This document shows, piece by piece, positions 1-18,926 of a stretch of 64,000 nucleotides of DNA; position 1 is the first letter of the stretch, and each line of letters opens with the position of its first letter. Below the pieces are notes generated by a model. It had not been told where the DNA came from. It was given only the letters and a program-made list of their open reading frames with translations, and ran no database searches. The position numbers and the translations under genes are program-made. Source of the stretch: Mycobacterium phage prophiFSAT01-1; sequence record BK061308.1. One strand, 5' to 3'.

Positions 1-1017
1 GAGAACGTGAGGGGACTGCTCAGTGCAACCGCCGATCGCAACATGGAACCCAACGACTCAGACCTGGGAGAAGACGCAGGACAACCTACACTCAACGCAG
101 CCGGAGCCGTACTCGGAGACCTGGCCGGACTCGGGTACAACGCGAGCTGGCGGACTGTATCCGCGTCATGGTGGGGAGCCCCGCATCAGCGCGAGCGAGT
201 CTTCATCCTTGCCTATCGTGCCGACCTCACGGCGACAGAAGTCGAAGAAGCAATCCGACCCGAATCAGGGGTCCATTTTGGACTGATCACCGCCGAGTCG
301 GGTGATCTGCTGCCGACACCCACCGCTGGCTACTACACGCGCGGGTCAAAGCATTTGATGCTGCCGTACGTCGCTCAGTATGCAACCGGCCACGATCCGG
401 TGCCCGATCGGCCAGATCTAAAGGGTCGTCCTGATCCACTTCTGCCTACACCTATTGCGCTCCAGAACAACACACACAACAGCGCAGGTAAGCCGATGCT
501 GACCGGACTGGTCAAGGAGTTGTTTCCGACGCCGACAGCGAGCGACGGAAACGGCGCTGGACCACACGGTGACGGCGGCCCGGATCTGCGGACGGTGGTC
601 AGCGGCATGTTCCCGCTGATGCCTACGCCGGTGGCGTCCGACGACCGAAACGGCGTGCACCCCGACAAACGGCGGAGCTACGGCATCGGTGCGTCGATCG
701 TCCAGATCGTTGATCTCGCTGTCGCCTACGGCGAACCCGAGTGGCACCAGTACGACCCGGCGATCAAGCGATGGGAGGCGCTGTTTCGTCCAGCGCCGTA
801 TCCCGTGGTACCCGGCAACGGGTCGCCTCAGCTCAACCCTCGGTTCTCCGAGTGGATGATGGGCTGGCCGCAGGATTGGGTCAACATCGACGGCCTGTCT
901 CGTCGCGTCCAGAACCGCATCTGTGGCAATGGCGTCGTGCCGCAACAGGCCGCTGGCGCGCTGCGCTGGATGCTCAGTGACCTAATCGCAGAGCTGAATG
1001 CGGCGGTGGCGGCATGA
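1..1017 (+). CDS. DNA (cytosine-5) methyltransferase, C-terminal part; 5' end lies outside the window
   Basis: Frame is open from nt 1. Translation starts at the ENV motif (ENVRGLL), followed by QRRERVFILAY (motif VIII) and GNGVVPQQA (motif X) with a variable target-recognition region between them. Confidence 0.75.
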   Translation, partial: ENVRGLLSATADRNMEPNDSDLGEDAGQPTLNAAGAVLGDLAGLGYNASWRTVSASWWGAPHQRERVFILAYRADLTATEVEEAIRPESGVHFGLITAESGDLLPTPTAGYYTRGSKHLMLPYVAQYATGHDPVPDRPDLKGRPDPLLPTPIALQNNTHNSAGKPMLTGLVKELFPTPTASDGNGAGPHGDGGPDLRTVVSGMFPLMPTPVASDDRNGVHPDKRRSYGIGASIVQIVDLAVAYGEPEWHQYDPAIKRWEALFRPAPYPVVPGNGSPQLNPRFSEWMMGWPQDWVNIDGLSRRVQNRICGNGVVPQQAAGALRWMLSDLIAELNAAVAA

Positions 1018-1781
1018 GCGCCGTCGACCAGTACATACCCGTAGCCGGGCTGCTGGAGCCACTGGGGCTGACCTGGAGTCATCAGACATCTCTCGCTGCG
1101 CTACTCGCGGCCAACGATGAGGGCAAAGATCTCGCAGCCTGGGACCGAATCGATCTCAAGGCGTATCAGATCGCAACTGCGGAGATGGAGATGGTCAGCA
1201 TCCTTCCGACCTTCGTCCACGACCAGCTCAAAGCGATCGCGGTTCCCGACCGAATCGTGTACTACCGCCACAACTTCTATCTGATGGGCATTGAGACGGG
1301 CGCGGAAGTTCATCGCTCGACGATCGCACTCATGGCGTTGGCCGCGCGAGGCAAGAGCTACGACCCCGCGGCTAAAAAACGCATCAAGGGTCTACCGATG
1401 GACATCGACCGCGGGCTGATCGTGCACATCCCCGAGGGTGCAAAGAAGGCCACCGTGCACTGGGTCAATCTGCTACGCGGATGGGGCGATGTGTCGCTGG
1501 CACACAGGCTCTCTGAGCTTCGCAAGCGCACTGTCAAGGACTACATCGCGCCCGTGCGGCGTCCCGACGACCGGCCCAAGAACGCTCAGGCTTACCGCCG
1601 TCGCGGCCAGTTCGACAACTTTTCCAACAGGACACGCAAGCGGTTCGACGTACTCGCAGCACGTGCGAAGGACATCGAAGAGCTGCGCGACGTGTACACG
1701 CGAGCGCACAAGAACATTGCGCTCACCCCCAGCTTCAAAGAGGCATGCAAACGACGGCTAGCGGAGCTGTCGGCCTCCTAG
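1014..1781 (+). CDS. Cas4/RecB-like nuclease paralog with a degenerate active site
   Basis: Paralog of ORF 4723..5652, sharing the VHWVNLLRGW and KRRLAEL C-terminal motifs. The RecB motif III 'IIDVKTG' is replaced by 'LMGIETG', so the catalytic D and K are lost. ATGA overlap with the upstream gene. Confidence 0.5.
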   Translation: MSAVDQYIPVAGLLEPLGLTWSHQTSLAALLAANDEGKDLAAWDRIDLKAYQIATAEMEMVSILPTFVHDQLKAIAVPDRIVYYRHNFYLMGIETGAEVHRSTIALMALAARGKSYDPAAKKRIKGLPMDIDRGLIVHIPEGAKKATVHWVNLLRGWGDVSLAHRLSELRKRTVKDYIAPVRRPDDRPKNAQAYRRRGQFDNFSNRTRKRFDVLAARAKDIEELRDVYTRAHKNIALTPSFKEACKRRLAELSAS

Positions 1782-1823
1782 AAGGGCATCACAACAACGA
1801 CACCAACGAATGGAAGGAATGAG

Positions 1824-1931
1824 ATGTCATCCAAGGAAACGACTTTCGGTGACTACGCGTCCTGGCTGATGTTAGCCATGACCGGGCCGATCGTCGCGGC
1901 GGCGTACCTGATCCGAGTGGGGGCGTTCTGA
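1824..1931 (+). CDS. small hydrophobic protein (35 aa)
   Basis: ATG preceded by GGAAGGAATGAG as ribosome-binding site. Stop overlaps the next start (ATGA). Below the ORF-track length cutoff. Confidence 0.3.
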   Translation: MSSKETTFGDYASWLMLAMTGPIVAAAYLIRVGAF

Positions 1932-2254
1932 TGGACACCAACTACCCGACGTACCCCAGCGGCACCATCGCGTACTGGGTATGCCCACGCAACGACAATC
2001 ATGTCTCGGTGCTGCTGCGCGACGCCAACGGCTGGAACCTATCCGGCGTCGCTGAGCATGGCAATTTCACCATGTTCATGGAGCCGCTGAAGTTGGGGCT
2101 TGCGCTGTTGACGGGTCATTCGATTCCGGTCATCAGCGACCAGGACTTCCACGAACTCCAGCAGGGACCCAAGCCGATGGTCGTGACCATCGTGCACATT
2201 CCCACCGCGCCGTTGGTCACCGACGAGGACGAAGAGGTGGCCGACCATGCGTGA
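1931..2254 (+). CDS. hypothetical protein (NDNH-motif domain)
   Basis: ORF is coupled to its neighbours and GC-rich at third codon positions. It shares a 'C-P-x-N-D-N-H' domain with the next gene. Confidence 0.45.
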   Translation: MDTNYPTYPSGTIAYWVCPRNDNHVSVLLRDANGWNLSGVAEHGNFTMFMEPLKLGLALLTGHSIPVISDQDFHELQQGPKPMVVTIVHIPTAPLVTDEDEEVADHA

Positions 2255-2795
2255 GTATCCCATGGGCTCAATGGTGTTCACCATCTGCCCGGACAACGAC
2301 AACCATGCAGTCTTCGGTCTGCGCGCCGAGGACGGCTGGTATCTCATGCAGGTCACCGAATCGAGCACGCTCAAGATCACCCAAGAGCCGTCCACCGACG
2401 AGGAGATAATGGGCGATCTGGATATGACGTGGATCGTCTGCCGTGACCCGTTGATGACGATCATCGGGCCGGACAAGACGAGGCCGGATGAGTGTCCCAG
2501 TGGCAGCATCATTTTCAGCCGCATGGAGGATCATCCGTTCGCGATCGTCGCTGGCTTGAAAACGCTGGACGGCTGGGAATTTGCACGTATCAACCCCGAC
2601 GGCAAGTTTGAGGCGATGGCGTTCATCCATCACCTACTGACTCACCACCTGGGGATGAACGTCGGACTACCGCAGGACAGCAACGTGTTTGGCAGTGAAG
2701 ACGTTGACCCGCGGTACGTGATCGGCGGTGACTGGACGATCGTCCACGTTCCTACGGTCGTCACCACCCCCGTATCGAAGGCGGCGGAGAACTGA
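2247..2795 (+). CDS. hypothetical protein (two copies of the NDNH-type domain)
   Basis: Paralogous to 1931..2254 (MVFTICPDNDNHAVFG vs IAYWVCPRNDNHVSVL), with a second degenerate copy at its C-terminus. Confidence 0.45.
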   Translation: MREYPMGSMVFTICPDNDNHAVFGLRAEDGWYLMQVTESSTLKITQEPSTDEEIMGDLDMTWIVCRDPLMTIIGPDKTRPDECPSGSIIFSRMEDHPFAIVAGLKTLDGWEFARINPDGKFEAMAFIHHLLTHHLGMNVGLPQDSNVFGSEDVDPRYVIGGDWTIVHVPTVVTTPVSKAAEN

Positions 2796-3322
2796 TGGAC
2801 CTGATCGTGGTGGACCTGGAGACCACAGGTCTTGACACCGATGTTCACTCGATCCTGGAGGTGGCGGCTGTCAATGTCGCCACCGGCCAGGAACTCTACT
2901 TCGTGCCCTACATCAAGCCTGATCAGATGATGATGGCCGACCCGGAAGCGCTGCGTATCAACAGGTATTACGAACGCGGTGTGTTCCGCAAGATGCTCAA
3001 GAGTCCCGACGACAACGTCCAAGCCTATCGCGAGCTGTTCGACATGCTGAAAGACAACAGGCTCGGCGGCGCTAACCCCCGTTTCGACGCCGACATGCTG
3101 GTCAAAGCAACTGGCTACGCGGAGTCTTGGCACTATCGGCTGGCCGATGTGTGCGCGTACGTCAGCGGCGCTCTGGGATTCGACCCTAGCGACATTCGCG
3201 GCCTGCATGACATGTGCGTATCGCTATCGGTGGACACCGGCACTGAGCACAGCGCCCTAGACGACGCCAGGGCGACCGCAGCATGCTTCCGGGCCGCCGC
3301 ACTGGGACCCCGGAGTCGATGA
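2795..3322 (+). CDS. DnaQ-like DEDDh 3'-5' exonuclease
   Basis: Exo I motif VVDLETTGLD, Exo II NPRFDADML and Exo III H-SALDDARATA motifs are present. Confidence 0.7.
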   Translation: MDLIVVDLETTGLDTDVHSILEVAAVNVATGQELYFVPYIKPDQMMMADPEALRINRYYERGVFRKMLKSPDDNVQAYRELFDMLKDNRLGGANPRFDADMLVKATGYAESWHYRLADVCAYVSGALGFDPSDIRGLHDMCVSLSVDTGTEHSALDDARATAACFRAAALGPRSR

Positions 3323-3735
3323 TGGGAAGGTTTAAAGAGTGGTTCGGCCAACTCGTGCAACAGCTTCCGTCGCAAGACGTGGAGGCGCGTGTCGAGGTCG
3401 ACAACTGGCTGACTGCGGGCAACAACCTGATCGTGGAGGCCGGCGCGCAGGATCATCAGTTGTTCCTGCGCATGAACGGTAGTGACTGGCCGCTGCGATC
3501 GGGCACGTACGCCCTGGCGACTAGCCAGGGGCGGCGGCTGCTGCTGTCAACGCACTGGGACGAAGTTGACGACTGGGCGGTCTACGTCGGCACCGAGACG
3601 GTAGACCAGCACGACACACCCCCGGTGTGGGACGTGAAGTTCCGCATCGTCCCCTTTCACCGAGTTAGGGACCCACTGGTCATCATCGCCCTGGAGGACG
3701 GGGAGTTCCTGACGGACATTGAGGAGATCGCATGA
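3319..3735 (+). CDS. hypothetical protein
   Basis: ATGA overlap with the upstream stop, in an operon context. Confidence 0.4.
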   Translation: MMGRFKEWFGQLVQQLPSQDVEARVEVDNWLTAGNNLIVEAGAQDHQLFLRMNGSDWPLRSGTYALATSQGRRLLLSTHWDEVDDWAVYVGTETVDQHDTPPVWDVKFRIVPFHRVRDPLVIIALEDGEFLTDIEEIA

Positions 3736-4451
3736 CACTCGCACTGGTCACCGACGACATGACGACAGGTGTTCTGAAAACAACTGATGGCGAGCGTAAC
3801 TCGCGCAAGAAGCTGTACTGGAAACGTCGGCGAGAAGCGCTATCGGGCGTCGCGCTGGAACGCTTGGCAGATCTTGGTATTGAGTTCCCGGTGGTCGCGG
3901 GAACCATGACTATCCCCGAGGTTTGCGACTACTTCGGAATCAGCCGTTCGACACTGACCAACATAGCCCGCCAGTACTACGAAGAGCTGATCGAGGTCGG
4001 TTACATGCCCGGCAGCGTGACACAGCCGACGCGGTACAGCGAGTTGGCGCTTGCGCATGTTGCGATGATCCTGCGACCCAGCACATCTGACCAGGCGATG
4101 ATCATCCAGAAGGCACTAGGCATCTACCGCGCACCTCGCGGAGCCGTCAAGGTCCACAACCAGAGTGGTGCTCACGTCAAGGTCTGCGGCCGCGTGCTCG
4201 ATGAGGCATACAAGCTGATCAGTGAGATTCGCGAGGATGACCCCGAAGAGGTTTGGAAGGCGCTGGAGAAACGCAATCGTCATGAGCTGCAAGTGCTCAC
4301 GGTGGCGTTGGCGGCGCTAGTGCCGAATGACCGCGGTGGACTGCGCGCTTGGCTGGCCGAAATCGGTCTGGGCATCCGCTCGGACGCTCAGAACAAGGCA
4401 GCGGTCGGGCTGGCCAGCTTGGTCCCGAGTCGTCAGCAGGTGTCTGAGTGA
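3732..4451 (+). CDS. hypothetical protein with predicted HTH (MTIPEVCDYFGISRSTLTNIARQY)
   Basis: ORF with ATGA coupling and a helix-turn-helix-like segment. Confidence 0.45.
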   Translation: MTLALVTDDMTTGVLKTTDGERNSRKKLYWKRRREALSGVALERLADLGIEFPVVAGTMTIPEVCDYFGISRSTLTNIARQYYEELIEVGYMPGSVTQPTRYSELALAHVAMILRPSTSDQAMIIQKALGIYRAPRGAVKVHNQSGAHVKVCGRVLDEAYKLISEIREDDPEEVWKALEKRNRHELQVLTVALAALVPNDRGGLRAWLAEIGLGIRSDAQNKAAVGLASLVPSRQQVSE

Positions 4452-4726
4452 ACGAAGTCCCGGCCCGTCGCCGCGCGGTCTACGACGGTGACGCGCGCGA
4501 GGTTGCCAACACCCCCCAACTGCTGGGGCCGTGCTCCCGTGGCATTTTCTGGCGACCCGTGTCAGCGGCGTACGACAGCGAAAACGACAACACCACAGTC
4601 GTATTCGCACCCGTACCGCGCGACGAGGTGATGGCGATTGCTGCCAAGCAGCTTGACGCACATCGCGAGACGCTGATTGACCTCGCGGCCAGTGGACTTC
4701 TCGATACCAAGGGGACACGCAAGTGA
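4448..4726 (+). CDS. hypothetical protein
   Basis: Coupled ORF whose stop overlaps the start of the next gene. Confidence 0.4.
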   Translation: MNEVPARRRAVYDGDAREVANTPQLLGPCSRGIFWRPVSAAYDSENDNTTVVFAPVPRDEVMAIAAKQLDAHRETLIDLAASGLLDTKGTRK

Positions 4727-5652
4727 GCGACCAGTTCACCAACGACATTCCACGCGATGGCTGGGGTCGCCCGAAGATCAAGCAGCCAGACGGCAAGCTC
4801 AAGGCTTACCGCCGTACCACCAAGTTCATCAACGTGCTCGAAGACACCTACAACCTGGAGAAGTGGAAGCTGCGCCAGGTGGCACTAGGCCTGGGGCAGC
4901 GTGAAGACCTGGTGCTGGCCGCTGCGTCGTGCACACAAGAGGACAAGGGAACGCTCAACGACGTAGCGCACAAGGCGATGGAGCACGCGCGGTCATCATC
5001 TAAGTCGACCACCGGGACGGCGCTGCACAAGCTGTGCGAGCGCGTGGACCGCGGCGAGCCCTTGGGTTCCATACCGTCGGCATTCGTTGGTGACATCGAG
5101 GCCTATGAGAAGTGTCGCGACGCCAACGGCTTGAAATACAAGCAAATCGAAATGATGCGCGTCCTGCATGACTGGCAGGTCGCCGGCACCCCCGACCGGG
5201 TTGGGGAGTACCACGGGAAGCACTACATCATCGACGTAAAGACAGGCGACATCACCTGGTCTGAGCGTGAGATCTCGATGCAGCTTGGCGCATACTCGCG
5301 CAGCACCGCGTACACGGCCGATGGCGACGTGGATGACGGGTTCGTGATCGACCAGGACCGCGCGATCGTCATCCATCTGCCCTCCGGTCAGGGTAAGTGC
5401 GAGTTGCACTGGGTGGACATCTCGCGCGGATGGAAGGCATGCCAGCTCGCCAGGCAAGTGTGGGACTGGCGCAGCGAGAGTGGTCTGTTCGTCCCGATCA
5501 GCGAGGACGATCCACTCATCCCGCTCGCGCTGGCCTGCACCACCGTGGAAGAACTTCGCGACCTCTGGCAGACCGCCTATGAGGAGGACGCGATTGACGA
5601 TGCGTTCAAGGTCGTCGTCAAGCGGCGCCTCGCCGAACTCGGCGCAGCGTAA
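4723..5652 (+). CDS. Cas4/RecB-family PD-(D/E)xK exonuclease
   Basis: RecB nuclease motif II 'GTPDRVGE' and motif III 'IIDVKTG' (hhhDYKT-like) are both present. Confidence 0.7.
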   Translation: MSDQFTNDIPRDGWGRPKIKQPDGKLKAYRRTTKFINVLEDTYNLEKWKLRQVALGLGQREDLVLAAASCTQEDKGTLNDVAHKAMEHARSSSKSTTGTALHKLCERVDRGEPLGSIPSAFVGDIEAYEKCRDANGLKYKQIEMMRVLHDWQVAGTPDRVGEYHGKHYIIDVKTGDITWSEREISMQLGAYSRSTAYTADGDVDDGFVIDQDRAIVIHLPSGQGKCELHWVDISRGWKACQLARQVWDWRSESGLFVPISEDDPLIPLALACTTVEELRDLWQTAYEEDAIDDAFKVVVKRRLAELGAA

Positions 5653-5687
5653 TCAACAACAACGGCACCATCAACGAAAGGCACGAA

Positions 5688-6668
5688 ATGAGTTGGCAGA
5701 TGTGGACGTTCATCGTCCTGGCGTTTATCGCGGTCCCGATCATCGGGGTCGGTCTTTGGATGCTGCGAAAATCCGGCAGTGTTGGACCCAAGCCCGAGAA
5801 GGATGGGCCCAATGACTATGACTACACGTACAAGCTGCGCGACTGGGAGAACCAAGTTGATCGCGTGGAAGAGAATCGCGGAACGTCCAAGCTGACGATC
5901 ATCACTGGTGCGGCCATTCTCGCGCTGGCGACGATCATTCTCACTTTCGGATGCTTCACCATCGTTGCGACGCGCAGCGTCGGCATCGTGACCACGTTCG
6001 GGAAGCCCTCCGGCACAACGCTCCAGAACGGCCTACATGCCAAGGCCCCTTGGTCGAACGTGACCGAGATGGATGGCGCGATTCAAAATGACGTGTTCAA
6101 CGGCGACCACCGCGTGAAGATCCGTCTCGGCAACAACTCCACCGCGGACGCAGATGTCAATGTGCGCTGGCAGATTAAGCCCGATGCCGCTGATGTGCTC
6201 TTCGTCCAGTACAAGACGTTCGACAATGTGAAGTCCAACCTGGTCACTCGCTCGCTCCAGTCGGCCATGAATGAGACTTTCGCGTCATTCGATCCTCTGG
6301 AGCCCAAGAACGCCACGAACGGCGCTGATCTGGGTGCACTGTCGAGGCAGGTTCAACAGCGTCTCATCGCCAAGATCAGCAGCCAGATCGACGTGCTGGA
6401 GGTCAACGTTCCGATCATCGATTACGACCAGCAGACCGAGGACAAGATCAACCAGTACAACGCCGAGAAAGCCAATACTGCTGTCGCAGAGCAGGCGAAA
6501 CAGACGGCAGAAGCGCAGGCCGCCGCCAACAAGATACTTGCGTCGTCGGTGTCCAATGATCCGAACGTCATAATCATGTACTGCATCCAGAAGTCACTGG
6601 AGAAGGGGCAGCCCACCGCTGGCTGCTGGCCGATCAACGGCGCCATTCCCACGGTGCCGGTTCGATGA
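5688..6668 (+). CDS. SPFH/band-7 (prohibitin/HflKC-like) membrane protein
   Basis: Two N-terminal transmembrane segments are followed by a band-7-like core (VGIVTTFGK...VNVRWQIKP...) and a C-terminal coiled coil (AEQAKQTAEAQAAANK). Confidence 0.6.
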   Translation: MSWQMWTFIVLAFIAVPIIGVGLWMLRKSGSVGPKPEKDGPNDYDYTYKLRDWENQVDRVEENRGTSKLTIITGAAILALATIILTFGCFTIVATRSVGIVTTFGKPSGTTLQNGLHAKAPWSNVTEMDGAIQNDVFNGDHRVKIRLGNNSTADADVNVRWQIKPDAADVLFVQYKTFDNVKSNLVTRSLQSAMNETFASFDPLEPKNATNGADLGALSRQVQQRLIAKISSQIDVLEVNVPIIDYDQQTEDKINQYNAEKANTAVAEQAKQTAEAQAAANKILASSVSNDPNVIIMYCIQKSLEKGQPTAGCWPINGAIPTVPVR

Positions 6669-7021
6669 CGACCGTGAACACCCTCACCGAGTACCAGCGT
6701 AGAGCTGCCGAGACAGCTATCTACCCCGGTGCTGATGACATCGAAAGCGTAGACGGTTTGGCCTACGTAACAATGGGTCTCGTCGGCGAGGCTGGTGAGA
6801 TCGCGAATAAGGTCAAGAAGATCCTTCGGGATGACGGCGGTGTCATCACTGCTTCCGCTCGTTTGCGACTGGTCTTCGAGCTGGGGGATGTGCTCTGGTA
6901 CCTGGCGCAGACGGCGACCCAGCTGGGGATCGATCTGGATTCGATTGCGGGCATGAACATCGCCAAGCTGGCCTCGCGTTCTGAGCGCGGCACCCTGCAA
7001 GGGTCCGGTGATGCGCGGTGA
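6665..7021 (+). CDS. MazG-like nucleoside triphosphate pyrophosphohydrolase
   Basis: EAGE-x-K-x-RD metal-binding helix (LVGEAGEIANKVKKILRDD) and ELGDVLWYL motif. Confidence 0.7.
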   Translation: MTTVNTLTEYQRRAAETAIYPGADDIESVDGLAYVTMGLVGEAGEIANKVKKILRDDGGVITASARLRLVFELGDVLWYLAQTATQLGIDLDSIAGMNIAKLASRSERGTLQGSGDAR

Positions 7022-7509
7022 AGAAGAAGCGACTGCTGCGCCTTGTCGCCAATGAGCGTGAGCGCGCCGACAAGGCGACGCAGACGATTGAACGACTCAC
7101 TCGTGAGGGTGAACAGAATCGCCAGAATCACAAGGAAACTCGCGAGAAGCTACAACGCACGATGGGACTGATCCGCAAGGCTGAGCGTGCGACGGCGTAT
7201 CTCACGCTGCCTGAGTTCGGCTCAATTTCACACTGCCCGATGTGTGACGAGAGGCTTGAAGATATTCAGGTTCACCTCGTTGGCTGGACCCAGCCGGACA
7301 CGCCTTTCACGAAGTCATACAGCGTGCCCACAAGCGGCGGTAGTCCTTACCTGTCAAGCGGATTCGTTAACCGAATTGAATGGTTTGGCAGTGTCGATAG
7401 CGCTGACGAGAATGCTGACACTCCAGCGCATCTGGTCTATCAGTGTGGATGCGGCTACATCTTCCGCACCAAGACGCGCAAGGACACGCCGAGGGTGGTC
7501 ATCACATGA
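7018..7509 (+). CDS. hypothetical zinc-ribbon protein
   Basis: CPMCDE...CGCGY cysteine pairs and a coiled-coil N-terminus. Confidence 0.4.
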   Translation: MKKKRLLRLVANERERADKATQTIERLTREGEQNRQNHKETREKLQRTMGLIRKAERATAYLTLPEFGSISHCPMCDERLEDIQVHLVGWTQPDTPFTKSYSVPTSGGSPYLSSGFVNRIEWFGSVDSADENADTPAHLVYQCGCGYIFRTKTRKDTPRVVIT

Positions 7510-7694
7510 CCACACACAAGCGCTACGGCTACAGAGACAGGTATGACCGCGTGACCGGAGACAACGCACAGGCGCGGCGCCTGAATGCTCAGATAGCGAT
7601 GATCAGGCGCGCTCGCGAAACCGGGTTCCACATTACCGAGGTCGAGGCCAACCTGGCGGGCTTGCAGTTCAAGCCGCTCGACACCAAGCCGTAA
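7506..7694 (+). CDS. small hypothetical protein
   Basis: ATGA overlap with the upstream stop. Short. Confidence 0.3.
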   Translation: MTTHKRYGYRDRYDRVTGDNAQARRLNAQIAMIRRARETGFHITEVEANLAGLQFKPLDTKP

Positions 7695-7760
7695 CCGGCT
7701 GTGCCGGAACGGGATACGTGCGCCGCGCGTATCAACTACCAGGAATGAAAGGATCAACCA

Positions 7761-8225
7761 ATGAGTGATGACCTATTCGACGGTCCGGGCTCGGCCGATG
7801 TCATCAACTGGGAGGACCTGGAGAAGCGATTGCTACTTGTCCAACCCCTTGAGCTGAAGGTGGGAGTGCCGACCAAGAACTACGGCCCGAAGGATGCCAT
7901 TGAGGCCAACGTTCACGTGCTGGACGGCCCGGAGGCTGGCTCGGTGTACCGCAACGGGTACGTCTTCCCGCTGGTGCTGCAAGGTCAGATCAAGGGCAAC
8001 ATCGGAACTGGCCGTTTCAACCTTGGTCGTCTCGGCAAGGGTGTGCCCAAGCCGGGCCAGAAGCCGCCCTGGACACTGAGCGAGCCGACCGAGGATGAGA
8101 AGTCGCTGGCGCGAAAGTATCTCGCTAGCGACAAGTTCCAGCAGAACATGGCCGCGCCTGTCGCTGCGGCATCCGCACCAGCCAACGACCCATGGTCGAA
8201 CAACAGCGCGGAACCGCCGTTCTGA
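7761..8225 (+). CDS. hypothetical protein
   Basis: ORF preceded by the ATCAACTACCAGG motif and AAAGGA ribosome-binding site. Confidence 0.45.
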   Translation: MSDDLFDGPGSADVINWEDLEKRLLLVQPLELKVGVPTKNYGPKDAIEANVHVLDGPEAGSVYRNGYVFPLVLQGQIKGNIGTGRFNLGRLGKGVPKPGQKPPWTLSEPTEDEKSLARKYLASDKFQQNMAAPVAAASAPANDPWSNNSAEPPF

Positions 8226-8403
8226 TGAGCGGCCGAGGCTAGAAGCGGATCAACCCCCCGCCCGATCTGCTCGTCTCGGCAGGCGCGCCCCGCGCCCGAT
8301 CTCGTCCACAGTGTTTGGTTTCAGGTCCCAATCACTGACGGTCGGGGCGGGGCGCGCCACCCAAAACAACTGACACAACAAGCAAACCGACGCGGAGAAC
8401 GAG

Positions 8404-8613
8404 ATGAATGCGCCAGCACCCACCTGCAAGTGCGGTCACGACGATGACACGCATGTTGCGGGGTTCGGCCAGTGCCTCGGCTGCACGCACTGCCCTGACA
8501 TTCCGCACAACGCCAAGTCTGGGCACGTCTACAGCCGATGCCTATGCACCGAGTTCAAGCGCGACGATGAGAGCGCCAGCCAGACGGAGCGACTGATGGG
8601 AATGCAGTGGTGA
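8404..8613 (+). CDS. small Cys/His-rich protein
   Basis: CKCGHDDDTH...CLGCTHC...C pattern. A ribosome-binding site (GGAGAACGAG) precedes the ATG. Confidence 0.4.
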   Translation: MNAPAPTCKCGHDDDTHVAGFGQCLGCTHCPDIPHNAKSGHVYSRCLCTEFKRDDESASQTERLMGMQW

Positions 8614-8837
8614 GCGCCAAGACTATCCGTGCGCGTGAGATCGTCAATGAGGTCCGCAACGACGCCGCGAATGATGTCAAGAACTTCGACGGCCGTGAGC
8701 TGACTGGGCGACTGGTCGGCGAAATCAATGGCAACACAAACGGTCTCATCGTGGGTCTGGCCAATTGTATTGAGATGTTGGCGACCGAGATCGAGCGGCT
8801 TGAGAATCGGATGCCACCTCAACAGGGGTGGTGGTGA
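8607..8837 (+). CDS. hypothetical protein
   Basis: Overlapping, coupled ORF. Confidence 0.35.
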   Translation: MVSAKTIRAREIVNEVRNDAANDVKNFDGRELTGRLVGEINGNTNGLIVGLANCIEMLATEIERLENRMPPQQGWW

Positions 8838-9544
8838 TGTTCACCTACTCCACCTGCGTTACGTGCAACACGATCATGATCGTTACAGACCATGACCAGC
8901 GTCAGCACCCGGAGTGCGCAGAGAACGCGCCAGCGCCAACGCTGACGCGCGTGGAGCTGCTGACCGAGGAGTTACGCGCCGCACTCATTGCTGGCGACCA
9001 GTCTGTGTTCGATTCCAAGTTGGCTGAGCTGAATGTGATAGATGATCAGCCGCCACCGCTGGGCCCTTCGGCGCTGTTTTATGCCACAGAATATGGCTGG
9101 CCCGTGTTTCCGTTGGAGGTTGGGGGTAAGCGACCAGCTGTCCCGAAGAAGGATGGTGGCAACGGGTTCAAGGACGCGACGACCGATCCAGAGCGCATCA
9201 AGAAGTTCTGGACCAAGCACCCACTTTGCAACATCGGCATACCGACCGGCATCCATTTCGACGTGATCGATGTGGATGTGCCTGATGGATGGCTGTCGCT
9301 GCGCGACATGCTGAATGAGGATCGAGTGCCCGACATTCATGGTCGCGTGGCGACCTCATCTGGTGGTGTTCACCTTCTGATCGAACCCACCGGCGATGGC
9401 AACTCGGCCCGTATCGCGCCAGGTATCGACTACCGCGGCACGGGCGGTTATGTCGTGGCGCCACCCTCACGAATAGACCCCCAGCACCGCTGGTCGTGGA
9501 CGGTCAAGCCGTCACCGAAAGTAAAAGGGAGAGAGAAACAATGA
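8828..9544 (+). CDS. bifunctional DNA primase/polymerase (PrimPol) domain protein
   Basis: Prim-Pol N-terminal signature FYATEYGWPVFPL...GGKRPAV...GFKDATTDPERIKKFW...NIGIPTGIHFDVIDVD. Confidence 0.65.
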   Translation: MVVMFTYSTCVTCNTIMIVTDHDQRQHPECAENAPAPTLTRVELLTEELRAALIAGDQSVFDSKLAELNVIDDQPPPLGPSALFYATEYGWPVFPLEVGGKRPAVPKKDGGNGFKDATTDPERIKKFWTKHPLCNIGIPTGIHFDVIDVDVPDGWLSLRDMLNEDRVPDIHGRVATSSGGVHLLIEPTGDGNSARIAPGIDYRGTGGYVVAPPSRIDPQHRWSWTVKPSPKVKGREKQ

Positions 9545-9852
9545 ATGAATCAACTAACACCCATGAAGACCCCATCGTCAAGCATGTGGACTCCGAAGTC
9601 CTGCTAGACATCTGGCTCGATGGATTCTCCAGCGGCATGGCGACTTTGATCCTAAACGCATCCGAGGGGCACGACGACGCGCCACCTGAGATGGTGCAGG
9701 ACGCCATGGTCCAGAGAATCGTCAGCGAAATCACGAGCGACCCGGCGGCGATGGAGACAGCGCGTCAGAAGATCTTTGCGCGCGTGCTCGGCACTCCGCA
9801 GTTCGGGACCACCAAGCTCGACCTCGCGCGGGTGGATTCTTCCGATGAATGA
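9541..9852 (+). CDS. hypothetical protein
   Basis: ATGA coupling and an acidic protein. Confidence 0.4.
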   Translation: MNESTNTHEDPIVKHVDSEVLLDIWLDGFSSGMATLILNASEGHDDAPPEMVQDAMVQRIVSEITSDPAAMETARQKIFARVLGTPQFGTTKLDLARVDSSDE

Positions 9853-10321
9853 GCTGAATATGGCGATTCGCGAGGCGATCGCGGAGGCGAGCGACGACGC
9901 TACGCCGCAGCGTATCGCGGCGGGACTGGCCGAGCAGATGACCGAAAATGAGGCCAGAACGCACCTGGTGATGTTGATGACTGACGTTGTGCGCGCGCTC
10001 ATTCGCGAACGGCGCAACACGGCTCTGGCCAAAGCGATGAGCGAGCTACGCGGCGACAAAGCGAATCAGTCACCGAAACTGGCCGCGCGCCGTGAGTGGT
10101 GGCAGGAGATGCTTGAGTCACGCGTACACGTCGGCGCGAACGACTGGAAACGACTTGGCGACTGCACCGCAGGGGATCTGGAGTTCTGCATCGCCGAGCG
10201 AGAGATTCAGATCAATCGCACGCATCAGCAGATCGACAACTACCGGCATCTGATCAAGTTGATGGACGAGCACCACGCCGAGACGGTCGATCAGTTGCCA
10301 CGAGAGGCGCTGGCGGCCTGA
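9845..10321 (+). CDS. hypothetical protein
   Basis: Start overlaps the upstream stop. Helical protein. Confidence 0.4.
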   Translation: MNELNMAIREAIAEASDDATPQRIAAGLAEQMTENEARTHLVMLMTDVVRALIRERRNTALAKAMSELRGDKANQSPKLAARREWWQEMLESRVHVGANDWKRLGDCTAGDLEFCIAEREIQINRTHQQIDNYRHLIKLMDEHHAETVDQLPREALAA

Positions 10322-10541
10322 TGATTACAGACTTCCACCCGGACCAAGTTTTGAGCGCTAACCATATTTGCGTCGTTCGGGTGGAACCAAACTACCGAGT
10401 GCGACCAGTCTCGCGGTGTGACCCATGTGGCCGCCGTCGTACTCGGTTTCAAACTTCCACCTCGGCCCATATGTGGAGCGCTATCCAATCAGCATTCGCT
10501 CCGAGGTGGAACTCCATCACAACAACACAACGGAAGGATGA
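10322..10541. repeat. structured non-coding region: two related ~55-nt hairpin units
   Basis: Two stem-loops with arms TTCCACCCGG/CCGGGTGGAA and TTCCACCTCGG/CCGAGGTGGAA. Each loop contains GAGCGCTA and CATAT(T/G)TG. The region is 220 bp between replication-associated genes. Confidence 0.45.
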
Positions 10542-11279
10542 ATGATGGGAGCGATACTGCGTGACCCGTTGATGGGTCTCCATGCGGATGTGCTGAACGA
10601 TCTCGAATCAGTCAGGATCGCCAACGAGAATCGTCTGCGCACACTCACCGACACCGGCGAAGATGGCCACGGTCTGACGCTGGACAACGCCGAAGTGGCC
10701 CGCCTGGCGGCGTTGGTGGACGCGCTGAAAGATGCTGAGAAACAGGCGACATCGAACCTACAGAGGTCGATGCGCATACACCCACTGGGCAACTGGGCCA
10801 AGCAGATGACCGGCGTGGGTGAGAAGCAACTGGCGCGACTGCTGGCGGCTATCGGTGATCCGTACTGGAACGACCTGCACGATCGTCCACGGCTGGTCTC
10901 GGAGCTGTGGTCGTACGCTGGCTACGGAGTGATCGACGGAGCGGCACCGCGGCGGCAGCGAGGTGTCAAGAGCAACTGGTCCGATGACGCACGCATGCGC
11001 GCCCGACTCATCGCAGAGAAGTGCGTGATGCAGAAGCCGACTGCGCACTATCGCCAGGTCTACGACCGAGCGCGTGAGAAGTACGCGGATGCAACGCATG
11101 CCGTGACATGCAATCGCTGTGGTCCGAAGGGTAACCCAGCGGTCGCGGGGTCACCCCTGTCGGCGGGGCATCAACACGCGCGTGCGTTGCGCGTGGTGTC
11201 CAAGGAGCTGTTGCGCGATCTGTGGATCGAGTCGCGAAGGATTCATCAAGAGCGTGCGGAGGTTCTGATTGCGGCCTAG
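10542..11279 (+). CDS. protein resembling the C-terminal (Transposase_20/HhH) domain of IS110-family transposases, with no DEDD catalytic domain
   Basis: Segment MTGVGEKQLARLLAAIGDP...LWSYAGYGV...RQRGVKSNWSDDARMRARL matches the IS110 C-terminal domain pattern from memory. The N-terminus is a coiled coil only. Confidence 0.4.
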   Translation: MMGAILRDPLMGLHADVLNDLESVRIANENRLRTLTDTGEDGHGLTLDNAEVARLAALVDALKDAEKQATSNLQRSMRIHPLGNWAKQMTGVGEKQLARLLAAIGDPYWNDLHDRPRLVSELWSYAGYGVIDGAAPRRQRGVKSNWSDDARMRARLIAEKCVMQKPTAHYRQVYDRAREKYADATHAVTCNRCGPKGNPAVAGSPLSAGHQHARALRVVSKELLRDLWIESRRIHQERAEVLIAA

Positions 11280-11459
11280 AGATCAACTACCAGGCAACTA
11301 ATCATCAATCACAACAACGAAATTGGAGAATGCGATGAAGCGCTGGATATACAAATTCCTGGGCGTCCAAGTACCGGGGTACGACGAGACGCCCGCCTAC
11401 ACGGCGACGGTCAAGCGTCTCGGATTCGACCCGGAGACCCTGGCCTGGGTGGTGTCGGC

Positions 11460-11711
11460 ATGAGTGTTCTGCCGAGCACCGAAGAAGAACTTGAGTGGGA
11501 GAGCGGCATTGGTGCGTCTCTGGACAAGCTAATCAGAGAGCACCGAGACCAGACGCGAAAGATGGGCGGAACCCCGCCGCTGAAACTGCTGGCCGGATTG
11601 CTGCACCTCACGTACAAGGCGTATGGAACCGACGAGTTTCTGAAGATCGAAGATCTGATCAACCTGTTTATCGTTGCCATTGATCGGCTTGCGCAACAGG
11701 AGATGTCGTGA
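11460..11711 (+). CDS. small protein, member 1 of a tandem triplicated family (…IDRLAQQ C-terminus)
   Basis: Three consecutive ATGA-coupled paralogs share the motifs L-x-K/L...LI-x-L-x-V-A-I/V-DRLAQQ. Confidence 0.5.
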   Translation: MSVLPSTEEELEWESGIGASLDKLIREHRDQTRKMGGTPPLKLLAGLLHLTYKAYGTDEFLKIEDLINLFIVAIDRLAQQEMS

Positions 11712-11977
11712 TGATGGATGGGACGGAGTTCACCGCCGCTATCGCCGACAAGATCGGCCAATGGGCCAAGGATGTGAACGAAGAACTCGACGAGATGATC
11801 GGCGACCACATAAAGCTGATCAAATCTGTCGCGCCTGATCGCAACGTGGCACTAGTCAGCATCGCATCACGGTTCGCCACGATGCACGAGAATCCCGAGC
11901 AGGGTGAGATCAATGAGCTGTGCAGTCTGTTGGTACTAGCCATTGACCGCCTAGCGCAGCAGCGGGAGTCGTCGTGA
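11708..11977 (+). CDS. small protein, member 2 of the tandem family
   Basis: Same family as member 1; ATGA overlap. Confidence 0.5.
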   Translation: MMMDGTEFTAAIADKIGQWAKDVNEELDEMIGDHIKLIKSVAPDRNVALVSIASRFATMHENPEQGEINELCSLLVLAIDRLAQQRESS

Positions 11978-12219
11978 CGCACCCGTTCACACCCGTACAA
12001 GAGGCGGAAGCGTTCGCCTGGTACGCCAAAGTTGGTGCGGAGCTTGATGTGATGCTTGCTTCACAGCCGAAAACCGGGCCGCTGCCCGCGAAGTTCATCG
12101 CCGGAGTGATGGCGCTTGGAGCGTCGATGAGGCCGGAGCTGAAACTGGAGAACCTGATCGATCTACTGGTCGTTGCGGTGGATCGTCTTGCGCAGCAGCG
12201 AGGTACACCCAATGGCTAG
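11974..12219 (+). CDS. small protein, member 3 of the tandem family
   Basis: Same family as member 1; ATGA overlap. Confidence 0.5.
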   Translation: MTHPFTPVQEAEAFAWYAKVGAELDVMLASQPKTGPLPAKFIAGVMALGASMRPELKLENLIDLLVVAVDRLAQQRGTPNG

Positions 12220-12451
12220 ACAGTCTCGCACCGTCTACAGCTTCCCTGGCGAGCCTGAAGTGCAGTTCATGGGCATTTGCCATGACTGCAATCAGGCGCA
12301 GCCGTTCCTGAATGCACGGTCACGTGATGAGTGGGTGGACGACCATCGCACCTCTCACGGTCACCAGATCACGAAAACGGTTGAGGTGCATACCGGATTG
12401 GCCCGTGTCGAATGCACGATGAATTTTCAGGGAGAGGTGATGAAACGATGA
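12212..12451 (+). CDS. hypothetical protein
   Basis: Coupled ORF starting at MARQSR. Confidence 0.35.
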   Translation: MARQSRTVYSFPGEPEVQFMGICHDCNQAQPFLNARSRDEWVDDHRTSHGHQITKTVEVHTGLARVECTMNFQGEVMKR

Positions 12452-12981
12452 ACCAAGGGCCAAGCAACAAGCACTGGCTGCGAAAACTGCTGCGGCGTGA
12501 GCCGCATCAGCTCATATACAACAGTCATGGTGAGCTGTATCTGAGACGCTGGTACGTCATTCCGCGTAACCCGCTGCTGAATGTCTATGTCCACCAATTT
12601 ATTCACAGTGACGACGATCGCGCGCCACACGACCACCCGTGGTGGTTCGTGTCGTGGGTGCTCAAGGGTCACTACTTCGAGCACACCGACGCTGGCGTGA
12701 TCCGGCGCGAGCGTTGGTCGTGGGCGTTCCGGCGGGCAGTCCATCGGCACATCGTGAAGCTCGACACCGTTACGGTACAGGATCGATACGAGGATGGATC
12801 GTGGGCAAGAAGTGCTAGTCCGCAGGATGTTCCAGCGTGGACGCTGCTCATCACTGGCCGGCGCTTGCGCCAATGGGGATTCTGGTGCCCGACGCGGTAC
12901 ACGGTAGGACTGGAGCCGTATAACCCCGCCGCACGCTTTGTCCCGTGGCAGGACTTCGGCGCTGGTGGGTGCGGTGAGTAG
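12448..12981 (+). CDS. hypothetical protein
   Basis: ATGA overlap with the upstream gene. Confidence 0.4.
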   Translation: MNQGPSNKHWLRKLLRREPHQLIYNSHGELYLRRWYVIPRNPLLNVYVHQFIHSDDDRAPHDHPWWFVSWVLKGHYFEHTDAGVIRRERWSWAFRRAVHRHIVKLDTVTVQDRYEDGSWARSASPQDVPAWTLLITGRRLRQWGFWCPTRYTVGLEPYNPAARFVPWQDFGAGGCGE

Positions 12982-13657
12982 CCCATGCCTGGTACATCAC
13001 GTGGCCGTGGCCGCGGCCATCGCTATCCCGGTCGCAGCAGTGGGCTACGTCGCGCTGTTCTGGGAGCCACTGTCACGGGCGATCCCGTACTCCAGTGGCA
13101 TCTGTGCGAGCGGTGCGACAGACCATTCAGACACGTCAACATCAGAGCAAGGCTCTGCTACCTCTGCAACGAATCACAACGAAAGGTGTACGGAGACAGT
13201 GAAAACAACCATTGAACGCCTACGCGTCGAACGTGAAGGTGTCGTGAACTACCTGCGAAGCCTCGATGCCGAGATCGAGCGCGAGGAAATGTCAGGCATG
13301 CCGGTCGAGCCGAGCGAGCCGTTCGCGGTCGTCGCGTTCATCAAGGTTCGCGAGGACGACCAGCAACCGTTGAACTACGCAGCCATTCGCAACGGCGACA
13401 GGTGGGTGCTCACGCAGGACTCACGGTCCAACTACCCGCAGCGCTCGCGCTGCTGGGACGAACTGATGCGGTGGATCGGCCCGGACGAATGGCCGACCGT
13501 CCGCGTGTTGGTCGAGAAGCGGGACAGCCCGGTCAGTACCGATCAGATCAACATCCACGTGACTGACTCCATTGGTGGTGCTGGTGGTGGCGGCGGATTC
13601 GGTATTGGTGGCCGCCTCAGTGATCAAGCCAAACTCGGTAGGCCCGGCATTCTCTGA
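12938..13657 (+). CDS. hypothetical protein with a Gly-rich C-terminus
   Basis: Long ORF whose exact start is uncertain. C-terminal GGAGGGGGFGIGG tail. Confidence 0.4.
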   Translation: MSRGRTSALVGAVSSPCLVHHVAVAAAIAIPVAAVGYVALFWEPLSRAIPYSSGICASGATDHSDTSTSEQGSATSATNHNERCTETVKTTIERLRVEREGVVNYLRSLDAEIEREEMSGMPVEPSEPFAVVAFIKVREDDQQPLNYAAIRNGDRWVLTQDSRSNYPQRSRCWDELMRWIGPDEWPTVRVLVEKRDSPVSTDQINIHVTDSIGGAGGGGGFGIGGRLSDQAKLGRPGIL

Positions 13658-13829
13658 TGTTCGTTCTGCGAATGTGGTGGCATTCGTTTCGCGGTCATGG
13701 CGTACTCGGTGAGTCAACCGGGCGCGGTGACCGCGCGGCGTTTATGTGCTCATGTGGACGCGTATGGGAGCTGTAGTGCGCCCGTGTGGCGCACAATGAG
13801 AGGCAATCACAACACATCCGAGGAGTGCC

Positions 13830-14267
13830 ATGGGTTCGGAAACTGAGCTGATCAGCATGATCGAGATGACAATTACCGGGCACTGGCCAGACAAGCAGCA
13901 GGACACCGAGGGTGTGTCGACGCTGAGAACGGTTGCCACGGACATCGCCCGCGCCGTCAGCTATGCCGCTTTCCCGCAGCGTGTTCTAAACGGCCCTGGG
14001 CCGAGCGAGCCGATCGACTGGGGTGAGGCCATGCGCAGAGGCGGTATCACCGCCGTGGACGAGTCACCCGCCGTCAAGTACGTGCACACCATTCATGCTC
14101 CGCAGGCGATCATTGCGCGGCTGCTGGCAGGTGAAGACCTGACGAGGATGACTCGCGAAGAGTTTTTCGACACCCCCGGTGAGTGGACCGCTCTTGGTGT
14201 CGATGTTGAGACGGCGCAGCGTTTCGCGGCCATCGGTTCGGCGTCCGAAGACGGTCCGTGGATCTAG
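13830..14267 (+). CDS. hypothetical protein
   Basis: ORF with a CA-rich leader and GAGGAG ribosome-binding site upstream. Confidence 0.45.
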   Translation: MGSETELISMIEMTITGHWPDKQQDTEGVSTLRTVATDIARAVSYAAFPQRVLNGPGPSEPIDWGEAMRRGGITAVDESPAVKYVHTIHAPQAIIARLLAGEDLTRMTREEFFDTPGEWTALGVDVETAQRFAAIGSASEDGPWI

Positions 14268-17088: not shown

Positions 17089-17453
17089 TGACCGATCAAG
17101 ACGTACTGGAGGCCCTGGAGTTCACACCCGATCACGGGCCTTGTGAGTGCGTCAAATGCGGGCTGAACGAAGACCAGCCTGAGCACGAGGGTAGGTGCGG
17201 TAAGCCAGCCAAGTATCGCGCCGAGATGCACATGATCGACAAGTGCAACCAGCCGGGGCTTACCCCAAATGGCGGGACGATCTTCTTCGTCTGTGAGCGC
17301 TGCATGCTGATCGGCGAGCGCGTCGCGGCGCGGATAGCTGCCGCCAATCAACGGCTGATCAAGGAACGCGACTTCGTGATGATGTGCACCACATGTCAAC
17401 GGCCACTCAATGATCCACACAACATCATGGAGGTTGAACCACTCGATGAGTGA
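17088..17453 (+). CDS. small Cys-rich protein
   Basis: Multiple CxxC pairs (CECVKCG, CERCM, CTTCQ). Confidence 0.35.
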   Translation: MTDQDVLEALEFTPDHGPCECVKCGLNEDQPEHEGRCGKPAKYRAEMHMIDKCNQPGLTPNGGTIFFVCERCMLIGERVAARIAAANQRLIKERDFVMMCTTCQRPLNDPHNIMEVEPLDE

Positions 17454-18728: not shown

Positions 18729-18778
18729 TCTATACTGATCAGGCACCTTTCCGCAAAGGTGTCGTTGTTGTGATGGAC

Positions 18779-18818
18779 GAAGGCCCTCGGACCCCTCCGG
18801 GGGCCTTCGTTGCGTTTC
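18779..18818 (+). terminator. hairpin cluster / putative terminator at the end of the early block
   Basis: GAAGGCCC...GGGCCTTC 8-bp stem followed by GTTGCGTTTC. Preceded by two smaller hairpins at 18724-18761. Confidence 0.4.
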
Positions 18819-18926
18819 GGGCGCGCCATCAACTACCAGGCAACACAATGTCCACTACACGTCGTATCATGAGCAACTGACAGACCCATCCCAAAATCAG
18901 GTCCAGGCCTTCCGTCGGAGGCGATT

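Follow-up and report, generated by a model that had tools for sequence, protein, structure and literature searches.

The window analyzed here, the whole 64,000-nucleotide stretch of Mycobacterium phage prophiFSAT01-1 (BK061308.1), carries a short C/A-rich motif that is in excess of chance and associated with gene starts. It is present in about eight to ten copies and precedes the ribosome-binding site of about eight genes. With moderate confidence, we read the repeat as an RNA-level, start-associated leader cassette of the MabR cluster of prophages, most likely a C/A-rich translational leader and not a promoter. The cassette would consist of AUCACAACAAC, often followed by GACACC, and would sit 3-15 nt 5' of a GGAAGG-type Shine-Dalgarno sequence.

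The sequence ATCACAACA occurs five times against 0.64 expected, a count that none of 100 shuffles reached, and ATCACAACAAC with up to one mismatch occurs six times against 0.95 expected. A 9-mer is common to four of five leaders, which was not matched in any of 5000 dinucleotide shuffles of those leaders, and an independent repeat search also recovered the motif as a family (D7). CACAACA has 11 copies over both strands. Six of the 11 lie within 45 nt upstream of a start on the same strand, where 0.3 would be expected from the share of strand positions so placed (2.9%). The enrichment, the shuffles and the repeat search bear out the claim of the original prediction that a CA-rich leader recurs before at least five early genes. 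Its coordinate for the first leader, 1788, was right; the others begin at 5652, 10516 (not 10505), 11308 (not 11306) and 13806 (not 13796), and three of its coordinates were off by 2-12 nt. It missed the two leftward copies at 59215-59225 (-) and 58774-58788 (-), the weak variants at 8374 and 17418 and an inverted copy at 18764-18774 (Table 1). The purine-rich Shine-Dalgarno sequence it had described between motif and ATG was found at all five leaders (GGAAGGA, GAAAGG, GGAAGGA, TGGAGAA and GAGGAG, in order). There, the motif starts 36, 36, 26, 27 and 24 nt before the ATG, and it ends 13-25 nt before the start codon.

Sequence comparison places the window in cluster MabR, as a prophage with about 89% identity to Mycobacterium phage McProf. 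In megablast, bases 1-14000 match McProf, prophiFSIL01-1 and prophiFVLQ01-1 (Mycobacteroides prophage records) at 84-89% identity, and prophiFSQJ01-1 in part only (14% of the query at 82% identity). A tblastn search with all McProf proteins places the window in McProf order from gene 6, a DNA methylase, to about gene 96; window genes are named here after their McProf homologues. These four records make up cluster MabR (PMC9434293). The genome comparisons below cover five genomes, the window and its four relatives, which fall into two diverged lineages, the only ones present in the collections searched.

Table 1. Motif copies, associated elements and the inverted-copy locus in the window
Feature	Coordinates	Strand	Sequence	Context
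Copy 1	1788-1804	+	ATCACAACAAC + GACACC	42-nt gap before gene for 35-amino-acid (aa) membrane protein (start 1824)
Copy 1 Shine-Dalgarno	1812-1818	+	GGAAGGA	
Copy 2	5652-5669	+	variant ATCAACAACAAC + GGCACC	precedes Band-7/SPFH gene (start 5688)
Copy 3	10516-10526	+	ATCACAACAAC	26 nt before ATG 10542; module missing in McProf
Copy 4	11308-11318	+	ATCACAACAAC	27 nt before 42-aa gene (start 11335); ATCAACTACCAGG upstream at 11282-11294
Copy 5	13806-13816	+	ATCACAACACA	24 nt before gene start 13830; hairpin 13776-13794 upstream
Copy 6	59215-59225	-	ATCACAACGAC	5' untranslated region (UTR) of leftward 61-aa gene (start 59189), McProf gp92 homologue
Copy 6 hairpin	59227-59242	-		upstream of copy 6
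Copy 6 -10	59250-59255	-	TACACT	upstream of copy 6
Copy 6 operator palindrome	59264-59279	-		upstream of copy 6
Copy 7	58774-58788	-	ATCACCAACAACAAC	after strong hairpin 58796-58838, before Shine-Dalgarno GGAAGG and in-frame ATG 58743
Weak variant	8374-8380	+	CACAACA	30 nt before start 8404
Weak variant	17418-17424	+	CACAACA	28 nt before start 17446
-10-like hexamer	18731-18736	+	TATACT (TACACT in prophiFSQJ01-1)	right after stop codon of helix-turn-helix (HTH) gene; part of CTAYACTGATCAG
Hairpin 1	18742-18763	+	5' half CCUUUCC	5' half complementary to Shine-Dalgarno; stem retained in prophiFSQJ01-1 with altered bases
Linker	18764-18776	+	GTTGTTGTGATGG	single-stranded; exact reverse complement of leader motif; G/U-rich stretch GUUGUUGUGAUGG
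Inverted copy	18764-18774	-		in 210-nt gap after HTH gene (McProf gene 42 homologue)
Hairpin 2	18776-18811	+		strong stem-loop with two compensatory pairs; then U-poor tail UUGCGUUUC

Position and conservation of the leaders

Genes 7-42, the rightward early region, make up a long operon. Most of its adjacent genes overlap by 1-8 nt (ATGA or GTGA), with gaps at just a handful of junctions. The motif is found at four of the six non-overlapping junctions and a variant at a fifth. All of the roughly 13 gaps among the structural and lysis genes lack the motif. In every leader copy the motif lies on the strand of the downstream gene, the two leftward genes included. The first A of copy 2 is the final base of the stop codon of the gene before it, and copy 3 lies within the 3' end of the upstream open reading frame (ORF) 10321-10545. 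That ORF and the next, 10542-11279, belong to a segment of about 1.5 kb (9853-11334) that is missing from McProf between the gp24 and gp25 homologues and brings its own C/A leader; a Pfam search of both ORFs was negative.

The motif travels with the gene downstream of it. In prophiFVLQ01-1 and prophiFSQJ01-1 the exonuclease gene upstream of the membrane-protein gene is deleted and the motif is kept, and in prophiFSQJ01-1 the motif also precedes a gene apparently unrelated to its positional counterpart. The core CACAACA(AC) is retained in four orthologous leaders across the five genomes, including the most diverged, prophiFSQJ01-1. Between the window and prophiFSQJ01-1, the motif is identical at 38 of 45 positions (84%) and the flanking leader at 97 of 178 (54%; Fisher p = 1.3e-4). 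Initiation regions that bear the motif are A/C-rich, T-poor and less structured than others among 83 regions (Mann-Whitney p = 6e-4); the six motif genes rank 4, 5, 8, 19, 22 and 23 for weakest predicted structure. Within these regions the motif, with its two ACA triplets, lies directly 5' of the Shine-Dalgarno sequence.

ACA triplets just 5' of the Shine-Dalgarno sequence have been shown experimentally to enhance translation in enterobacteria (PMC3879156), and by analogy we infer translation enhancement by the MabR motif. The cassette would front genes that recruit ribosomes de novo, at several early-operon junctions and before both genes of the leftward right-arm operon; such genes would have to do so for lack of translational coupling with their upstream neighbour. 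The C/A leader with its ACA triplets would keep the initiation region unstructured and serve as an enhancer or a ribosome standby site. Everything computed agrees with this half of the original prediction, that CA leaders act as translation enhancers; its other half, a promoter -10/discriminator, fell for want of any -10 at the five early sites (see below). Several points weigh against a purely translational leader. The experimental precedent for C/A or ACA enhancers comes from enterobacteria, not mycobacteria. The early junction before gene 7761 has no motif, and McProf carries single substitutions within the motif at two sites (ATCACAGCAAC and ATCATAACAAC). Conservation of the AUCAC part exceeds what a merely unstructured leader would need and points to a specific RNA or protein partner. 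Five genomes in two diverged lineages also limit the power of the comparison. RNase E cleavage sites have the consensus RN↓CNU. The motif does not fit it, and a role as an RNase E site was rejected.

Two annotated starts look different in light of the leaders. The first 50 annotated residues of McProf gp91, an AAA-ATPase, are 68% conserved, against 93% for the remainder. Because the annotated N-terminus is so poorly conserved, ATG 58743, just after copy 7, is probably the true start, and the annotated one probably lies about 49 codons too far upstream (58743-58888, -). In prophiFSQJ01-1, gene 7 is annotated to start at 4766, ahead of its own C/A leader (4802-4820; region 4766-4860), and the ATG aligned with the starts in the other genomes seems the likelier one.

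No carriers beyond the cluster were recovered in the searches made. Distant-mode blastn with the inverted-copy locus returned the four MabR records only, and pattern and protein scans of IMG/VR returned the same four genomes. A scan of GTDB genomes with the DnaB-like helicase found distant prophages (33-52% identity) with no recognizable leader motif; one of them has three CACAACAAC matches, in C/A-rich stretches away from recognizable leaders. Homologues of the HTH and Band-7 proteins lie in other prophage clusters that lack the cassette or in sequences identical to prophiFSQJ01-1, and added no new variation. A 17-mer occurs as a forward and inverted pair in MabR contigs only; the other eight IMG/VR matches are single, about the number estimated by chance. 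The MabR and McProf papers mention neither an intergenic motif nor a small RNA, and both the leader motif and the inverted-copy locus are undescribed in the MabR literature. A 242-nt gap (6966-7208) in a distantly related prophage has AT-rich DNA flanked by GTCCACATGTCCACA repeats. It resembles an origin or a regulatory array and has no relation to the C/A motif.

The inverted copy and a candidate anti-leader RNA

The inverted copy is the sole copy that serves no gene: inspection of the locus, prophiFSQJ01-1 included, found no conserved minus-strand ORF that it could front. Read on the plus strand, it forms the linker between two hairpins downstream of a -10-like hexamer, with 5-6 nt between TATACT and hairpin 1. 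Positions 18758-18774, the linker and the 3' half of hairpin 1, are an exact 17-nt complement of leader copy 1. The linker is unpaired in the consensus structure and invariant in five of five genomes, in all of which the -10 remains TANNNT. In prophiFSQJ01-1, hairpin 2 is kept by its compensatory pairs and hairpin 1 is re-registered; the two hairpins have z-scores of -4.0 and -6.5. The 13-mer CTAYACTGATCAG occurs just twice in the window, here and at the leftward 61-aa gene, where it precedes a 5' hairpin and the C/A leader. Because both share it, the 18731 locus looks like the promoter and 5' hairpin of the 61-aa gene followed by the reverse complement of the motif. Both SigA-type TANNNT hexamers, at 18731 and 59255, are predicted from sequence and are kept as TATACT or TACACT in the five genomes.

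How, then, is the element to be understood? We think it quite plausible, if somewhat short of probable, that 18731-18822 is transcription punctuation only, its complementarity to the leaders being a by-product of inverted cassette duplication and gene conversion with no antisense regulation. It could be a pair of tandem terminators closing the early operon, or the promoter-proximal terminator of the next operon in the manner of lambda pR'-tR'. In keeping with this, a terminator scan flags hairpin 1 and its tail (GTTGTTGTGA / GUUGUUGUGA) as terminator-like, and the strong stem of hairpin 2 stands where the early operon ends. Conservation with prophiFSQJ01-1 extends over the hairpin 2 stems as well as the linker, and there are just two lineages to compare. 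The McProf lysogen RNA sequencing paper, which covers annotated genes and lysogeny only, lists no expression at the locus. Against punctuation alone, a plain terminator tail has no need of 13 invariant bases, and the conserved TANNNT 6 nt before hairpin 1 lies in a 13-mer that also occurs at another, genuine promoter of the phage. No true leader forms hairpin 1, and the inverted copy has therefore evolved a structure of its own. The tail of hairpin 2 is U-poor and varies between genomes; hairpin 2 could be the terminator of either the candidate RNA or the early operon.

A second possibility, which we hold tentatively and regard as rather doubtful, is that a MabR small RNA of about 80 nt (18742-18820, +), antisense to the leader cassette, co-ordinately silences or times five to eight independently initiating genes. 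Its G/U-rich linker would pair with the C/A enhancer box, and its C/U-rich hairpin arm with the Shine-Dalgarno sequence. This anti-leader would be under its own -10, with a promoter and 5' hairpin common to another phage transcript. Alternatively, the 3' end of an early mRNA carrying the complement could do the pairing, and the leader genes would be shut off together. We infer that the anti-leader would be made as a stable RNA and pair in vivo.

Pairing energies were predicted for such an RNA. Among 83 initiation regions, and with the cost of opening structure included, its best predicted partners are genes 1824 (-24.4 kcal/mol), 5688 (-21.6) and 59189 (-19.8); genes 11335 and 10542 rank 6 and 10, and 13830 is not outstanding. 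In the predicted dimers, hairpin 1 is opened and its CCUUUCC arm lies over the Shine-Dalgarno sequence. With its corrected start, the AAA-ATPase leader ranks second by plain duplex energy, opening cost excluded. The summed duplex energy of the top six beats 150 of 150 composition-matched shuffles, though pairing energies are partly a consequence of how the locus was found, and the comparison of lineages is more independent. In prophiFSQJ01-1, the anti-leader read as its complement is CCATCACAACAACTGCACCAGCGGAAGAGGTGCA, and the leaders have GCACCAGCGGAAGA (gene 7), AGCGGAAGAGG (gene 25) and CGGAAGA (gene 16); leaders of the window lineage instead use GACACC and GGAAAGG or GGAAGG. The exact 11-17-mers shared between RNA and leaders are lineage-specific. 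AGCGGAAGAGG has just two copies in the searched 50 kb of prophiFSQJ01-1, in one leader and in the anti-leader, which speaks against punctuation alone. The same is true of the greater stability of cognate RNA-leader pairs over cross-lineage pairs in five of six comparisons, although with two lineages gene conversion could mimic either result.

A search of the whole window with Rfam 15, which includes GcvB and 6C, gave no match at the gathering threshold; at the locus the only one was ar7, at 17 bits against a gathering score of 60, which is chance level. A search of the window for tRNA and tmRNA genes also found none. Another conserved TANNNT, TATCAT in the window and TACACT in prophiFSQJ01-1, lies in 18864-18928 (+), just before the glycosyltransferase gene, together with a hairpin that is followed by a T-tract (18907-18928). 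The next operon may have its real promoter and leader here.

Other readings of the motif

Four other readings of the repeated motif were weighed against that of a translational leader. It is unlikely that the motif is the site of a sequence-specific RNA-binding protein, phage- or host-encoded, that turns translation up or down. In its favor are the motif's strand specificity, nearness to the Shine-Dalgarno sequence and retained AUCAC core, and the authors who described an analogous motif in Cluster K phages left its partners as "either RNA or protein." However, no candidate protein was found, Pfam was negative for the small neighbouring genes, and a protein would leave the inverted copy unexplained.

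We find it improbable that the motif has no function of its own and that the likeness comes from duplicated or shuffled modules or from recombination linkers at gene boundaries. Copies 1 and 2 do follow paralogous exonuclease genes (27% amino-acid identity), and mosaic breakpoints relative to McProf, prophiFVLQ01-1 or prophiFSQJ01-1 coincide with leader cassettes. Yet the leaders of this paralogous pair are far more alike than the proteins encoded upstream of them, the genes downstream are non-homologous, and between the diverged lineages the core is conserved well over its flanks.

A DNA site for a phage regulator, one that blocks transcription elongation in the manner of the Cluster A stoperators, is very unlikely. 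It would fit the asymmetry of the motif, its place in short intergenic spaces and its mostly constant orientation relative to transcription, and would permit one site in the opposite orientation. The motif is, however, constrained in its spacing to the start codon and Shine-Dalgarno sequence, and one copy lies within a 5' UTR, downstream of the promoter. It is also missing from the McProf immunity region (2593-2882): the operators there are of the ACTAGTAG type, and a search allowing two mismatches found no C/A motif. Early gaps already hold an operator-like repeat, ATCAACTACCAGG, an exact 13-mer found three times, always in gaps of the rightward operon (7731-7743, 11282-11294 and 18828-18840, +). 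Read as its complement, CCTGGTAGTTGAT, it is similar to the ACTAGTAG(TTGAT) repeats in the immunity region of McProf. The three copies may be stoperator-like repressor or Cro sites within the operon, and ATCAACTACCAGG is a better candidate for a stoperator or DNA site than the C/A motif.

Finally, a common -10/discriminator of an early transcription class, the other proposal of the original prediction, has next to nothing in its favor beyond recurrence before early genes: all of the sites fall inside a long operon whose genes overlap, the 60 nt before each of the five early sites contain no TANNNT hexamer (background frequency 0.0022 per nt), a sigma-70 consensus scan found nothing there, and the promoter reading was ruled out. 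A good -10 exists at just two places, 18731 and 59255, about 25-30 nt upstream of the motif with a hairpin between. Because the -10 lies upstream, beyond the hairpin, the motif at these places is transcribed leader downstream of the real -10, not promoter.

The right arm and the tail region have repeats of their own. The right arm has six palindromes with the pattern TTGGTAGAC-N2-4-GTCTACCAA (55342-55412, 57197-57216, 59262-59281 and 59352-59373), probably operators of a right-arm regulator. At the leftward 61-aa gene, one of them covers the -35 position of the TACACT promoter. The McProf gp93 homologue (59238-59357, +) has its annotated GTG, 59238, inside the promoter and 5' hairpin region of this divergent leftward gene, and its gene call is doubtful. 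Three tandem paralogous small genes at 11460-12219 (McProf 26, 27 and 28 homologues) have a common conserved C-terminal repeat (family D6), and a minor tail protein gene contains a 40-nt repeat in six copies at intervals of 60-135 nt (45107-45602; family D1).

Significance and known systems

Motifs linked to start codons have been known in Cluster K phages since 2011, with no mechanism established. The MabR motif is a second, unrelated start-associated example, in prophages of the clinically relevant M. abscessus and M. chelonae, and the mechanism proposed for it is concrete: a C/A enhancer leader and a complementary RNA from the same phage. If true, it would amount to a translational regulon inside a temperate mycobacteriophage, with multi-target small-RNA control without Hfq, and would offer a useful part for expression tuning in mycobacterial genetics and in engineered therapeutic phages. 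If the cis element alone is real, it corrects start annotations (McProf gp91 and prophiFSQJ01-1 gene 7) and identifies independently translated early genes.

The closest known element in kind is the start-associated sequence of Cluster K (SAS/ESAS), which is cluster-specific and asymmetric, stands before non-structural genes with gaps and, in each genome, has a single reverse copy that is unexplained (Pope et al. 2011, PMC3203893). The MabR motif is likewise asymmetric, in one orientation and before non-structural genes with an upstream gap, yet the likeness is in kind only and the motif is not a member of the family. The Cluster K sequence GGGATAGGAGCCC, at up to two mismatches, has no match in the window and 16 in the control phage Anaya. 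It lies 3-7 bp upstream of the start, contains the Shine-Dalgarno core AGGAG and has about 9-20 copies (PMC3203893). The MabR motif, in contrast, is C/A-rich, lies 5' of a separate Shine-Dalgarno sequence, ends well before the start codon, has no 17-bp inverted-repeat extension and numbers about 8-10 copies. In Anaya we confirmed the single reverse copy (Anaya 59870-59882; 29871-29883 of the examined stretch). It follows a strong terminator, within 385 nt of non-coding sequence, and may likewise mark an anti-leader locus; such a locus may also explain the single reverse sequence of Cluster K phages in general.

The pairing logic has its nearest parallel in GcvB. GcvB-type systems are host-encoded, Hfq-dependent and enterobacterial, and DapZ has a GcvB-like seed; the mycobacterial host genus is not known to have Hfq. 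The G/U-rich seed of GcvB targets C/A-rich (ACA) translational enhancers (Yang, Figueroa-Bossi and Bossi 2014, PMC3879156). In MabR, too, C/A-rich ACA elements stand just upstream of the Shine-Dalgarno sequence in several mRNAs, and the candidate RNA has a single-stranded G/U-rich GUUGUUGUGAUGG between hairpins, and a terminator-like end stem and would act on many leaders. Unlike GcvB, the candidate is phage-encoded, is predicted from sequence and is also complementary to the Shine-Dalgarno sequence; there is no homology between the two, and Rfam gave no match. It may be a phage-borne, Hfq-independent analogue of GcvB logic, or merely a terminator or leader structure. A host precedent is the small RNA B11, which pairs with ribosome-binding sites without Hfq and is host-encoded, with C-rich loops. 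The MabR locus has no sequence or structural similarity to it, and the Rfam search of the window was negative. B11/6C of Mycobacterium abscessus sets a precedent for small-RNA regulation in the host genus (PMC10470900).

Two phage systems that act on transcription complete the comparison. Stoperators match the operator of the early promoter and act on DNA. Those of Cluster A mycobacteriophages, sites of the L5 repressor, are mentioned alongside the Cluster K sequences (PMC3203893). They resemble the MabR motif as asymmetric repeats in short operon gaps with an orientation bias, but differ in that the C/A motif is missing from the MabR immunity region. Lambda pR'-tR' yields a short transcript and is the site of Q antitermination. 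The inverted-copy locus shares with it a promoter-like -10, a strong hairpin within about 80 nt and a position between a small regulator gene, which comes immediately before, and the operon that runs into the packaging and structural genes. The MabR HTH gene occupies the position of the antiterminator gene Q, with no Q homologue shown. The two differ in the U-poor tail of hairpin 2 and in the complementarity to the leaders, which the lambda arrangement does not explain.

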